Virus genome (UHGV): UHGV-0139183
From: a virus
Reading direction: 5' to 3' (one strand)
DNA: 18,655 nucleotides
The notes below the pieces were generated by a model. The model had not been told where the DNA came from, made no database searches, and was given only the letters and a program-made list of their open reading frames with translations. Shown here in pieces: positions 7,504-10,235 of this stretch (within the stretch, counting starts at the first letter, position 1; every line of letters begins with the position of its first letter). A program made the position numbers and the translations under genes.

Positions 7504-9023
7504 GCACAAAATTTTATACCCTGCTGACGGATATTGGCGCGGCGAAACTTGCCAGCGCCGCCGCGCTCGGTGTGCCGCTAAAAATTACCCATATGGCGGT
7601 GGGCGATGGTGGCGGAACATTGCCGACGCCGGACGCAAAGCAGAGTGCACTGGTAAATGAGAAACGTCGGGCTGCGCTGAATATGCTCTATATCGACCCA
7701 CAGAACAGCAGCCAGATTATTGCTGAACAGGTGATCCCTGAAAACGAGGGCGGTTGGTGGATACGTGAAGTGGGCCTGTTTGATGAATCCGGGGCATTGA
7801 TTGCCGTGGGAAACTGCCCGGAAAGCTATAAGCCGCAACTGGCTGAAGGTAGCGGGCGCACTCAGACCGTGCGCATGGTGCTGATTACCAGCAGCACGGA
7901 CAATATCACCCTGAAAATCGACCCTGCTGTAGTGCTGGCAACCCGCAAGTATGTGGATGACAAGGCACTGGAGCTGAAGGTGTACGCGGATGATCAGATG
8001 GCAAAACATCTTGCCGCACCGGACCCGCATTCACAGTATGCACCCAAAGAAAGCCCGACATTTACCGGAACCCCCAAAGCGCCAACGCCAGCGGCGGGGA
8101 ATAATACCACGCAGGTTGCGACCACTGCGTTTGTACAGGCGGCACTGACGGCCCTTATTAATGGTGCGCCAGCCACGCTGGACACGCTGAAAGAAATAGC
8201 CGCAGCCATTAACAATGATCCGAATTTCAGTACCACCATTAACAATGCGCTGGCACTAAAAGCACCGTTGTCGAGTCCGGCACTCACCGGAACGCCAACA
8301 GCCCCCACGGCGGCGCAGTCGGTCAACAATACACAGATTGCCACTACGGCTTTTGTGAAATCGGCGATTGCAGGAATGGTGGGTTCTGCACCTGCTGCAC
8401 TGGATACACTGAACGAACTGGCGGCGGCACTGGGGAATGATCCGAACTTTGCCACGACAATGCTTAATGCGCTGGCAGGTAAACAACCGCTGGACAATAC
8501 GCTTACCAATTTGAGTGGAAAGGATGTAGCTGGTCTTCTCACATACCTTGGTTTGGGAGAAGGCTCAGCATTACCCATTGGTGTGCCTGTTCCGTGGCCT
8601 TCAGCCACACCGCCAACAGGCTGGCTGAAATGCAACGGGGCGGCATTTTCTGCTGAAGAATACCCGGAACTGGCAAAGGCTTACCCGACAAATATATTGC
8701 CTGATTTACGTGGTGAATTTATTCGTGGCTGGGATGACGGGCGCGGAGTGGACAGTAGCCGGACGTTGTTGTCGTGGCAAAAAGGCTCTTATCTGGTTCA
8801 GGAAGCCAATATATCACCCGACAGCGTGGTGCAGTTTTCGGTAAACGACATTGCCCTGCTGGGATGGGATAAAACTGAAACCAATTCAGATATTCTCAGA
8901 GCGAAAAGTATACCTACAGAACATATCTGGAACCCCGTTCCAGTGGGAGCCTGGGGGATTCAGTATCTGGGTTATGCAAGGCCACGTAACATTGCATTTA
9001 ACTACATCGTAAGGGCTGCATGA
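7500..9023 (+). CDS. H: Tail fibre protein (P2 gpH-like), current orientation of the invertible tip
   Basis: 507 aa; N-terminus resembles P2 gpH as recalled; two internal tandem repeats; C-terminal part carries a tail-collar-like motif (GWLKCNGAAFSAEEYPELA...LPDLRGEFIRGWDDGRG). The 3' third lies inside the invertible segment. Confidence 0.85.
   Translation: MSTKFYTLLTDIGAAKLASAAALGVPLKITHMAVGDGGGTLPTPDAKQSALVNEKRRAALNMLYIDPQNSSQIIAEQVIPENEGGWWIREVGLFDESGALIAVGNCPESYKPQLAEGSGRTQTVRMVLITSSTDNITLKIDPAVVLATRKYVDDKALELKVYADDQMAKHLAAPDPHSQYAPKESPTFTGTPKAPTPAAGNNTTQVATTAFVQAALTALINGAPATLDTLKEIAAAINNDPNFSTTINNALALKAPLSSPALTGTPTAPTAAQSVNNTQIATTAFVKSAIAGMVGSAPAALDTLNELAAALGNDPNFATTMLNALAGKQPLDNTLTNLSGKDVAGLLTYLGLGEGSALPIGVPVPWPSATPPTGWLKCNGAAFSAEEYPELAKAYPTNILPDLRGEFIRGWDDGRGVDSSRTLLSWQKGSYLVQEANISPDSVVQFSVNDIALLGWDKTETNSDILRAKSIPTEHIWNPVPVGAWGIQYLGYARPRNIAFNYIVRAA
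8052..8493 (+). repeat. Two tandem ~220-bp in-frame repeats inside H (about 73 aa each)
   Basis: SPTFTGTPKAPTPAAGNNTTQVATTAFVQAALTALINGAPATLDTLKEIAAAINNDPNFSTTINNALALKA is followed by the closely similar PALTGTPTAPTAAQSVNNTQIATTAFVKSAIAGMVGSAPAALDTLNELAAALGNDPNFATTMLNALAGKQ. Boundaries approximate. Confidence 0.75.
8536..8561 (+). repeat. Left recombination (crossover) site of invertible segment, gix/hix-like 26 bp
   Basis: TTCTCACATACC-TT-GGTTTGGGAGAA; its reverse complement shares the first 15 nt (half-site, core, first nt of the second half) with the right site at 10182-10207; central dinucleotide TT at 8548-8549 lies within H codon CTT (Leu in ...LLTYLGLGE...). Confidence 0.7.
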
Positions 9024-9637
9024 TGAGCAAGAAAACCATGACTACAGCGGTGCTGAATGAATCGCGGCTGGCAACAGTTGCAGGAGAGGTTGTTGTCCAC
9101 AGCTACGATAATAAGACGCGGGAATACCTTTACACGTCAACCGAATATCTGGCTGTAGGCGTTGGCCTTCCTGCACATTCATGCACTGATGCCCCCGGGG
9201 AAAGGCGGTCTGGTTATGTGATTTGCCGCACTGCTGACCTGACCGCGTGGGAGTACGTGCCGGACCATCGGGGTGAGACAGTCTATAACACAGAAACCCG
9301 TGAGGCAGCAGAAATCACCACTCCGGGTGATTACCCTGAAAACACAACCACTGTCGCCCCGTTAACGCCATACGATAAATGGGATGGTGAGAAATGGGTG
9401 ACCGATACAGATGCGCAACATCGTGCCGCTGTAGAAGCGGCAAAAACACAACGCCAGTCGCTGATTGATACTGCAATGGCTTCCATTAATCTGATTCAGT
9501 TGAAATTGCAGGCCGGGCGAAAACTGACGCAGACAGAAACCACCCGGCTTAACGTCGTGCTGGATTACATTGACGCGGTGACGGCAACTGATACCAGCAC
9601 CGCACCGGATATCAGTTGGCCTGAACTGTACGTCTAG
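9020..9637 (+). CDS. G: Tail fibre assembly protein (P2 gpG / lambda Tfa-like)
   Basis: 205 aa, overlaps the H stop; C-terminal half resembles lambda Tfa as recalled (e.g. ...VPDHRGETVYNTETREAAEITTPGDYPENTT...DTSTAPDISWPELYV). Confidence 0.85.
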   Translation: MMSKKTMTTAVLNESRLATVAGEVVVHSYDNKTREYLYTSTEYLAVGVGLPAHSCTDAPGERRSGYVICRTADLTAWEYVPDHRGETVYNTETREAAEITTPGDYPENTTTVAPLTPYDKWDGEKWVTDTDAQHRAAVEAAKTQRQSLIDTAMASINLIQLKLQAGRKLTQTETTRLNVVLDYIDAVTATDTSTAPDISWPELYV

Positions 9638-9846
9638 CTTACCATTACCCACGTGGGTAGCCCATTGCTACCCGCCGCTCGTTTCATTCCCTCCGGAGGA
9701 GCCCCTAAAAACTTCAGAGCCATATCGTCATCGACGGGCTTAATATCATCAGGCAAAACGCCATTTCCACGGTATGCGTCGAGTAACACTGTCGGGTAAA
9801 ATTGATTCGTTGACGCGCTATAAAAGTAAATATTCATTATCACCAT
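9634..9846 (-). CDS. Alternative tail fibre assembly protein (G'), short 70-aa form
   Basis: N-terminus MNIYFYSASTNQFYP resembles the conserved Tfa N-terminal motif; its start overlaps the stop of the upstream alternative fibre tip (ATGGTGA); its stop is convergent with the G stop. Confidence 0.5.
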   Translation of the reverse strand: MVIMNIYFYSASTNQFYPTVLLDAYRGNGVLPDDIKPVDDDMALKFLGAPPEGMKRAAGSNGLPTWVMVS

Positions 9847-10235
9847 CCCTTCGCATACCAGTTACATGTCAAATTTGCCGGATTAACGTTATTACCCTCT
9901 GCCGTTGCGCAGCCAACCCTGAATTTTGAGTTGCTGACAGGGAATGCCTGTGAAATCTCGGCATATGACGTGTCATTCGGATCCGAGCTAATTAAAACGA
10001 ACGCACAACGGTTCGGGAATGGGATGACAAAATCTCCATCGCCGTTTCCATAATTACCGCGCCCCCATTGCTCCAGAAATCCATCTGGAGTCAACCGCCA
10101 CCCGTAATCTGCTTTCAGCGATGTCCATTTGCTCATATCAGGGATCTGATTTGCCCCAATCCCAACATCCCTTTTTGCCGCTTCTCCCAAACCAACGTTT
10201 AAGAAAATGCAGAGGTAACAGCTAACTGGCATCAT
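9840..10235 (-). CDS. Alternative tail fibre C-terminal (receptor-binding) cassette H'v; fused to H only after inversion
   Basis: 131-codon ORF whose codons 10-18 (IFLNVGLGE) are encoded by the right crossover site; Gly/Asn/Trp-rich composition typical of fibre tips; no independent expression expected in this orientation. Confidence 0.6.
   Translation of the reverse strand: MMPVSCYLCIFLNVGLGEAAKRDVGIGANQIPDMSKWTSLKADYGWRLTPDGFLEQWGRGNYGNGDGDFVIPFPNRCAFVLISSDPNDTSYAEISQAFPVSNSKFRVGCATAEGNNVNPANLTCNWYAKGW
10182..10207 (+). repeat. Right recombination (crossover) site of invertible segment, gix/hix-like 26 bp
   Basis: TTCTCCCAAACC-AA-CGTTTAAGAAAA; 12-2-12 organisation with AA core and AAACC...GTTT half-sites like hixL and gix as recalled; about 55 bp upstream of the invertase start. 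Confidence 0.7.

Follow-up and report, generated by a model that had tools for sequence, protein, structure and literature searches.

The P segment of e14, a cryptic prophage of E. coli K-12 with the invertase PinE, is invertible, as has been demonstrated experimentally. In E. coli P2-like prophages, inversion has been demonstrated by sequencing and PCR (Goldberg 2014, PMC4272514), and the P2-like loci of EPEC E2348/69 were found in both orientations in clonal cultures (PMC4272514). Fels-2, a P2-like prophage of Salmonella, offers another precedent: its Fin, homologous to Pin, lies next to an invertible tail-fibre segment (PMC7953296). Mu G/Gin and P1 C/Cin belong to the same class, with 26-bp sites, a 2-bp core, a constant part S that continues into Sv or Sv', assembly genes U/U', an enhancer lying within the invertase gene and, as a feature of Mu and P1, alternative host range. 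Hin/hix has sites of the same 26-bp architecture and likewise a Fis enhancer, but Hin switches a promoter instead of a coding C-terminus.

The window, by which we mean the whole stretch of 18,655 bp analysed here, is almost certainly the tail module of an E. coli P2-like prophage with an invertible segment of the Mu G, P1 C and e14 P type, which gives the tail fibre one of two tips. The segment spans positions 8549-10194 (1,646 bp) and holds two convergent cassettes. The features of the locus are as follows.

7500-8547, plus strand: constant N-terminal part of H, aa 1-349, common to both fibre forms
8536-8561, plus strand: left crossover site, 26 bp, core TT at 8548-8549, within H; TTCTCACATACC-TT-GGTTTGGGAGAA
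8549-9023, plus strand: variable cassette 1, collar-domain fibre tip, 158 aa; Pfam Collar PF07484, E 5e-14
9020-9637, plus strand: tail-fibre assembly protein of cassette 1 (P2 G / Tfa type); Caudo_TAP PF02413, E 3e-31; phrog_105, E 9e-90
9634-9837, minus strand: mini assembly protein of cassette 2, 67 aa; phrog_188 and phrog_19350 matches
9840-10194, minus strand: variable cassette 2, gp53-like tip, 117 aa plus stop; Gp53-like_C PF21882, E 4e-11
10182-10207, plus strand: right crossover site, 26 bp, core AA at 10194-10195; TTCTCCCAAACC-AA-CGTTTAAGAAAA
10263-10829, plus strand: serine DNA invertase of the Gin/Cin/Pin/Hin group, 188 aa; Pfam Resolvase and HTH_7; presumed nucleophile Ser9
10281-10352, plus strand: putative recombinational enhancer inside the invertase gene, at the position homologous to the annotated P1 cin enhancer (nt 19-90)

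The closest invertase is that of e14 (83% identical), which also has the same TT core and the same layout, namely two convergent fibre-tip and Tfa cassettes followed by the invertase gene. However, e14 is a defective lambdoid-type element with pseudogenes, whereas the window contains a complete P2-type tail module in which the fibre constant part is P2 H-like and the Tfa of cassette 2 is truncated. The P2-like loci of EPEC E2348/69 likewise have collar-type and gp53-like cassettes, an invertase and then the sheath gene. One of them (2977580-2979467) lies in a truncated prophage with an integrase remnant in place of the H constant part; the invertase encoded there is 77% identical, and a Tfa of full length (146 aa) accompanies the gp53-like tip. 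The second locus contains three repeats and can adopt four states. The Mu and P1 segments are longer (3-4.2 kb versus 1.65 kb here) and their fibre tips are unrelated; in addition, the Mu core is GA rather than TT, and P1 has its invertase on the opposite side with respect to S. For Fels-2 Fin, the likeness concerns a Pin-type invertase beside a fibre segment in a P2-like prophage. A shufflon (Rci tyrosine recombinase, 19-bp sfx repeats, more than two sites) was ruled out, as the locus has a serine resolvase/invertase and two sites only.

A preliminary description of this DNA placed two mutually inverted crossover sites at 8536-8561 and 10182-10207, and both are confirmed. Aligned as inverted repeats, the sites match at 21 of 26 positions, and their cores, TT on the left and AA on the right, are then the same dinucleotide. 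An inverted-repeat search ranks the pair first in the region. Also as described, one half-site plus the core is identical and the outer half-sites diverge; specifically, a 15-bp exact block, TTGGTTTGGGAGAAG, comprises the inner half-site and core of both sites. Each site is an imperfect palindrome, with half-site symmetry of 10/12 (left) and 8/12 (right). The palindromic 26-mer consensus TTCTCNNAAACCNNGGTTTNNGAGAA, built from known sites and allowed up to 3 mismatches, matches in only two places in the 18,655 bp, with 0.00 expected from 200 shuffles. Relaxed to 6 mismatches, the 26-mer consensus reveals no third site in the window of the kind found in Min- or shufflon-like multi-inversion systems. 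A 14-mer alone with 3 mismatches does no better than chance in the window, and the evidential weight therefore rests on the full 26-mer.

The right site is identical at 26/26 positions to the right site of the EPEC E2348/69 P2-like invertible locus (L013, 3955-3980) and at 25/26 to the e14 site. The inner half-site GGTTTGGGAGAA with its core is identical in e14, the EPEC P2 locus and a lambdoid prophage (L004). The proposed resemblance to gix and hix is apt for the type of site, but the closest relatives are e14 pix, P1 cix and the EPEC P2 sites, which have a TT core, and not Mu gix, which has a GA core. Conservation of the sites among related invertible cassettes, named beforehand as a check, is found in e14, P1 and the EPEC P2-like loci.

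The H ORF (7500-9023) encodes a 507-aa product, of which aa 1-150 match Pfam Phage_tail_fib (PF12571, E 1.4e-64). The core TT forms positions 2-3 of a CTT (Leu) codon in H and of a GTT (Val) codon on the minus strand, the shared codon phase from which an in-frame hybrid of about 467 aa had been predicted. In-silico inversion indeed yields an uninterrupted 467-aa ORF reading ...LLTYLGLGEAAKRDVGIGANQIP..., with the same constant part as native H. Inversion joins the constant part in frame to either the collar tip (507 aa) or the gp53-like tip (467 aa).

The two tips belong to unrelated Pfam families (Collar versus Gp53-like_C), and each has its own assembly gene. By sequence, the cassette 1 tip matches T4 gp37 and gp12 in the PDB, in their collar regions; the same kind of search returned no significant match, and hence no solved homologue, for the gp53-like tip. 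Tips of the cassette 1 type are fused to H in 380 E. coli complete-genome records and lie silent beside the invertase in 882. Cassette 2 is silent in the orientation of the window and lacks its own start codon; in the hybrid protein P0001 and at loci L005-L012 it continues the H constant part in frame. No specific NCBIfam model matched the fibre cassettes or the mini assembly protein. RefSeq places the start of the cassette 1 assembly protein at 9038, and an upstream ATG at 9846 would extend the mini assembly protein to 70 aa.

Natural orientation variants exist in public E. coli genomes. If L001 (E. coli 23CRST047), which has the orientation of the window, is inverted computationally at the cores, it matches L006 (GCA_052214395.1) across 6,401 bp without a single mismatch. 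The natural breakpoint between them is confined to 8547-8562, and can be placed only within the 15-bp identical block. Inverting the window itself gives 13,404 bp of gapless colinearity with L006, with 8 mismatches. Gene calls on at least 24 public contigs include the 467-aa hybrid at 100% identity, and 3 contigs encode the exact native H; because some of the hybrid-bearing contigs (L008, L010 and L011) are IS26-locked, defective prophages, these counts overstate active flipping. In three independent isolate assemblies (L005-L007) the flip is clean and every gene is intact. The protein database and draft assemblies yielded the exact flipped form; among complete E. coli genomes, its left junction is absent at ≥80% coverage, with partial matches only, to other gp53-like variants.

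Exact flipping of the segment 8549-10194 at its sites has thus occurred in nature. The orientation variants stem from different isolates rather than from one culture. They bear out the working inversion switch with an in-frame hybrid product that the preliminary description had proposed, and both orientations occur in public E. coli assemblies. The locus is a real but ordinary phage DNA switch of textbook type.

The invertase aligns without gaps to the Gin structures 3UJ3 and 4M6F over residues 1-184 (E 3e-91), with Ser9 aligned, and scores E 3e-52 for Pfam Resolvase and E 1.5e-15 for HTH_7. It is 83% identical to PinE, 76% to Cin and 73% to Gin, and its NCBIfam score lies under every equivalog cut-off. 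Invertases of the Gin/Cin/Pin/Hin (Din) group are small, about 185-195 aa, and combine an N-terminal catalytic domain, bearing Ser9/10 as nucleophile, with a C-terminal HTH; the cis-acting enhancer of these systems has two Fis sites spaced by 48 bp. Two Fis-consensus matches, at 10285-10299 and 10333-10347 (gene nt 23-37 and 71-85), lie 48 bp apart within the putative enhancer at 10281-10352. Both are kept in register in five invertase genes (gin, cin, pinE and the EPEC P2 gene included), a conservation confounded by coding constraint. As the consensus used is degenerate, matching about once in 128 positions, it is the spacing and the conserved position within the coding region that carry the enhancer call. 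A scan of 8400-11000 for promoters and terminators gave no candidate invertase promoter above shuffle expectation.

By analogy with the systems above, the invertase would bind the two 26-bp sites as dimers, while host Fis would sit on the enhancer inside the 5' end of the invertase gene. Staggered cuts at the central TT/AA, 180-degree rotation of one half-site pair and religation would then flip 8549-10194; we infer both the cleavage chemistry and the dependence on Fis and the enhancer from these relatives. In the orientation seen, the 349-aa constant part of H with the collar tip would be co-transcribed with the full-length assembly protein, and in the other orientation the same constant part with the gp53-like tip would be co-transcribed with the mini assembly protein. 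A lysogen population would in this way release particles with one of two receptor-binding tips, a form of bet-hedging on host range, and the two orientations would presumably differ in receptor or host range.

The mini assembly protein comprises only the fibre-binding N-terminal domain, without the Caudo_TAP C-domain. Specifically, it corresponds to positions 41-105 of the 207 in phrog_188 (E 1e-15), also matches the 70-position family phrog_19350, and, when aligned to full-length Tfa proteins, ends its alignment at 'LPTW'. Its 90% cluster contains 43 sequences from E. coli, Citrobacter and Shigella, with the 15 listed being 58-70 aa long. Compared with L004, 4 codons differ synonymously and 6 non-synonymously, too small a count to interpret. 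Because cassette 2 lacks the conserved Tfa C-terminal (trimerisation/assembly) domain, its sequence suggests that state 2, with the gp53-like tip and the mini protein, might give poorly assembled fibres.

A less conventional reading, which we consider possible though doubtful, is that the 67-aa protein is a minimal self-sufficient chaperone for gp53-like tips, or that state 2 borrows the C-domain function from elsewhere, and that the invertase acts in trans across co-resident prophages, as it may because its site is shared with e14, lambdoid and other P2-like prophages. If so, trans action could couple the fibre states of prophages, produce chimeric anti-phage fibres (cf. PinQ/StfE2), or cause inter-prophage rearrangements of the L009 type. 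L009 itself was dropped as evidence of inter-prophage recombination, since an assembly chimera across the shared cassette is a simpler explanation.

It is unlikely that the switch mainly serves the host or acts mainly in trans, either by flipping sites of co-resident prophages (e14, Mu-like or lambdoid) or by making alternative fibres that block the adsorption of other phages. The reported precedent is that of PinQ and e14 StfE2, in which PinQ inverts the e14 P segment in trans and an anti-T2 chimera results (PMC12529663), and the shared inner half-site and core, together with the several such loci per strain (up to 11 matching places per genome), would permit similar events here. However, the tail module is complete and the switch lies at the usual place in the late operon of what seems to be an intact P2-like phage, which makes a phage-side function the simplest reading, and the present data hold no sign of trans action or defence.

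It is very improbable that this copy is a frozen relic, whose sites and invertase were active in an ancestor and whose orientation variants record older events. Consistent with such a history, the exact cassette pair occurs in only 2-4 complete genomes, all in the orientation of the window, and locked derivatives such as L008 and L010 are known. Nevertheless, the invertase ORF is intact and gapless with all aligned Gin residues present, both sites are intact, the right one being identical to an experimentally active site, and the lack of any other difference between L001 and L006 over 6.4 kb implies a very recent flip.

The chance that the polymorphism arose by RecA-type recombination between inverted repeats, or from assembly artefacts, is close to negligible: although the breakpoint resolves only to the 15-bp block and at least one metagenome contig (L009) seems chimeric at the locus, efficient RecA recombination in E. 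coli is usually quoted as needing a minimum of ~25 bp, the block falls precisely on a canonical invertase site adjoining an invertase gene, the independent isolate assemblies are cleanly flipped, and a mixed population confusing assemblers would itself point to active inversion.

The phage inversion switch has practical consequences for annotation. RefSeq lists a free-standing 131-aa protein for the silent cassette and carries no label of invertibility at the locus, so that assemblies of the same prophage seem to encode different tail-fibre proteins. Pangenome and phage-typing analyses will consequently score one phage as two variants. The main value of the finding lies in annotation and interpretation, and it opens no new question; among P2-like coliphages it is a further well-documented case of a fibre switch with two states, its second cassette being unusually short.

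The window is the late/tail region of an E. coli P2-like prophage, and its nearest complete genome is E. coli 23CRST047 (99.8% over 7500–10900). The genes around the invertible segment are as follows.

6898–7503, plus strand: baseplate gene I
7500–9023, plus strand: tail-fibre gene H, 507 aa, with a Phage_tail_fib N-domain and a Collar domain
9020–9637, plus strand: tail-fibre assembly (Tfa) gene, Caudo_TAP
9634–9846, minus strand: small ORF (mini-Tfa; 67-aa form at 9634–9837)
9840–10235, minus strand: ORF with a Gp53-like_C fibre-tip domain
10257/10263–10829, plus strand: resolvase/invertase gene
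10972–12144, plus strand: tail sheath gene

In the native orientation, the constant part of H is joined to cassette 1 (8549–9023), which encodes a collar domain related to the collar domains of T4 gp37 and gp12 and is followed by the full-length assembly protein gene. Cassette 2 (9840–10194, minus strand) encodes the gp53-like tip, for which sequence search detects no solved homologue. In RefSeq the silent cassette appears as an independent 131-aa 'gp53-like domain-containing protein' (window 9840–10235, minus strand; 3841–4236 in the 23CRST047 locus). This annotation starts at 10235, past the right crossover site, and its first 13 residues occur in no fibre; it is an annotation artefact of invertible loci.

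The preliminary description placed two inverted 26-bp crossover sites at 8536–8561 and 10182–10207, and direct reading of the window finds them there. The left site is TTCTCACATACC-TT-GGTTTGGGAGAA and the right site is TTCTCCCAAACC-AA-CGTTTAAGAAAA. Aligned in inverted orientation, the two match at 21 of 26 positions; the identity claimed for one half-site plus core corresponds to a 15-bp exact block comprising the inner half-site and core, and the outer half-sites differ. The pair ranks first among inverted repeats of the region. Scanned with a palindromic consensus of known invertase sites, the window gives two matches, namely these two sites, with 0.00 expected in shuffles; the bare 14-mer with three mismatches allowed is not significant in the window by itself. 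The core TT lies at codon positions 2–3 in both reading frames, and inversion of 8549–10194 in silico yields an open 467-aa ORF with the junction ...LLTYL followed by GLGEAAKRDVGIGANQIP..., the in-frame hybrid that had been proposed. The preliminary description is confirmed in all its details.

The right site is identical at 26/26 positions to that of the P2-like invertible locus of EPEC E2348/69 and at 25/26 to that of e14. P1 cixL and cixR have the TT/AA core in common with the sites here, whereas the core of Mu gix is GA. The inner half-site and core have the same sequence in e14, the EPEC P2 locus and the lambdoid prophage of E. coli MARGA_3. Such shared sites fit a host-side or trans-acting role of the switch, modelled on PinQ, which acts on e14 to give an anti-T2 chimera (PMC12529663). 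Such a role would add to the phage-side function, not replace it.

The flipped state exists in public sequences. A database protein, P0001, matches the predicted hybrid with identity and coverage both 100%, and at least 24 contigs encode it. In three loci (L005–L007) the gene order is the H constant part fused to the gp53-like tip (467 aa), the 67-aa ORF, the Caudo_TAP gene and collar cassette on the opposite strand, and then the invertase, which is the order that inversion predicts. Against one of them, L006 (GCA_052214395.1), the in-silico inverted window is colinear without gaps across 13,404 bp, 8 of which are mismatches; the native window aligns only as three pieces, the middle one reversed. 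Furthermore, the 23CRST047 locus, which is in the native orientation, becomes identical to L006 over all 6,401 bp when inverted at the cores, so two independent assemblies differ by this inversion alone. Placing the assumed cut outside 8547–8562 introduces mismatches, and the natural exchange falls within the 15-bp block. RecA recombination on 15 bp, or assembly artefacts, could also give orientation variants, but neither is needed, and both leave unexplained the coincidence of a canonical site beside an invertase gene. A frozen relic that no longer flips is unlikely, given intact genes and sites and a flipped twin with zero other differences.

The exact native H is found on 3 contigs; hybrid contigs outnumber it in part because one lineage with an IS26-like element lost the right site and invertase. 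Across the wider family, 380 complete-genome records have the collar cassette joined to an H constant part, and 882 have it silent beside the invertase. In this lineage (L008, L010 and L011, at about 8430–9249), the IS26-like element is 820 bp long, encodes a 234-aa DDE_Tnp_IS240 transposase and stands in place of window 8549–8814 and 10195–15336. Missing with these stretches are the first part of the collar cassette, the right site, and the invertase, sheath, tube and (in part) tape-measure genes. Such a prophage is defective and fixed in the flipped orientation. A metagenome contig (L009, from 8696–8857 onward) follows the flipped segment and, exactly at the crossover (window 10195), switches to another P2-like H constant part with baseplate genes, in reverse complement; it is probably a chimeric assembly joined through a shared cassette, and conceivably a product of invertase-mediated recombination between two prophages. 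The window itself differs from both the 23CRST047 locus and L006 at the same seven positions (8567, 8577, 8585, 8625, 8684, 9358 and 9377), all inside the invertible segment; the flanks, about 11.7 kb in all, have no more than one mismatch. The pattern suggests a short tract of recombination or gene conversion within the collar cassette and its Tfa gene.

The intact Gin-family invertase begins with the ATG at 10263 and is 188 aa long. Its alignment to Mu Gin (PDB 3UJ3, 4M6F; E about 1e-91) covers Gin residues 1–184 with no gaps and pairs Ser9 with the Gin nucleophile. Sequence identity is 83% with e14 PinE, 77% with the EPEC P2 invertase, 76% with P1 Cin (78.6% by tblastn) and 73% with Gin. 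The crystallised Gin is the Fis-independent M114V mutant; the protein here has Met where that Gin has Val, and so resembles a wild-type enzyme that needs the enhancer. In P1, the annotated Cin enhancer spans cin nt 19–90. Matches to the Hübner–Arber Fis consensus occur at gene nt 23–37 and 71–85 in five of five invertase genes with aligned 5' ends, here at 10285–10299 and 10333–10347. Their spacing is 48 bp, as it is for the paired Fis sites of the Hin, Gin and Cin enhancers. A consensus this loose matches about once in 128 positions, and the region is coding; the pair is therefore consistent with, not proof of, an enhancer within the invertase gene. For the invertase, a simple scan gave no convincing sigma-70 promoter. 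Past the right site and ahead of the invertase start codon, at 10224–10243 (plus strand), is a terminator-like hairpin with a T run after it, which might insulate the gene from late-operon read-through.

Mini-Tfa (9634–9837, minus strand, 67 aa), which the silent cassette 2 carries as its own assembly gene, aligns to the N-terminal half of Tfa proteins alone and ends where the conserved C-terminal domain (Caudo_TAP) would start. PMC9608196, citing studies of Mu Tfa, assigns fibre binding to the variable N-domain, and trimerisation and assembly to the conserved C-domain; the flipped state would therefore be without one canonical part of its chaperone. At 90%, mini-Tfa falls in a cluster of 43 sequences, of which the 15 listed have lengths of 58–70 aa and come from E. 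coli, Citrobacter and Shigella; 49 contigs carry the exact sequence, and a 70-position PHROG family fits it. Judged by these sequences, the short form is stable and conserved. A perfect 14-bp palindrome, TACCCACGTGGGTA (9646–9659), lies where the two assembly genes converge, at the point where the homology of mini-Tfa to full-length Tfa proteins stops. The gp53-like and mini-Tfa module also occurs in the MARGA_3 lambdoid prophage (L004 3565–5212, 92.6% DNA identity), in the expressed position of a side-tail-fibre invertible region whose inner half-site is the same and whose invertase differs widely (51% identity). The two phage types are unrelated, and the module exemplifies cassette exchange between them.

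The locus belongs to the Gin/Cin/Pin/Hin inversion systems and the Mu/P1-type tail-fibre switches. It carries all the defining features that can be read from sequence; a working enhancer and a difference in host range are predicted from the family. Goldberg et al. 2014 (PMC4272514) saw the e14, EPEC Mu and EPEC P2 loci in either orientation in clonal cultures and give the repeats as AAACCTTGGTTTGGGAGAAGG and close variants. P2-like prophage precedents are Fels-2 Fin (PMC7953296) and the two EPEC loci (PMC4272514). As in the rest of the family, invertase dimers would bind each site, a Fis-bound enhancer would assemble the invertasome, both strands would be cleaved with 2-nt staggers at TT/AA, and subunits would rotate 180 degrees before the ends are religated. 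By analogy with Mu and P1, the two tips would recognise different receptors, so that a lysogen population would release phage of two host ranges.
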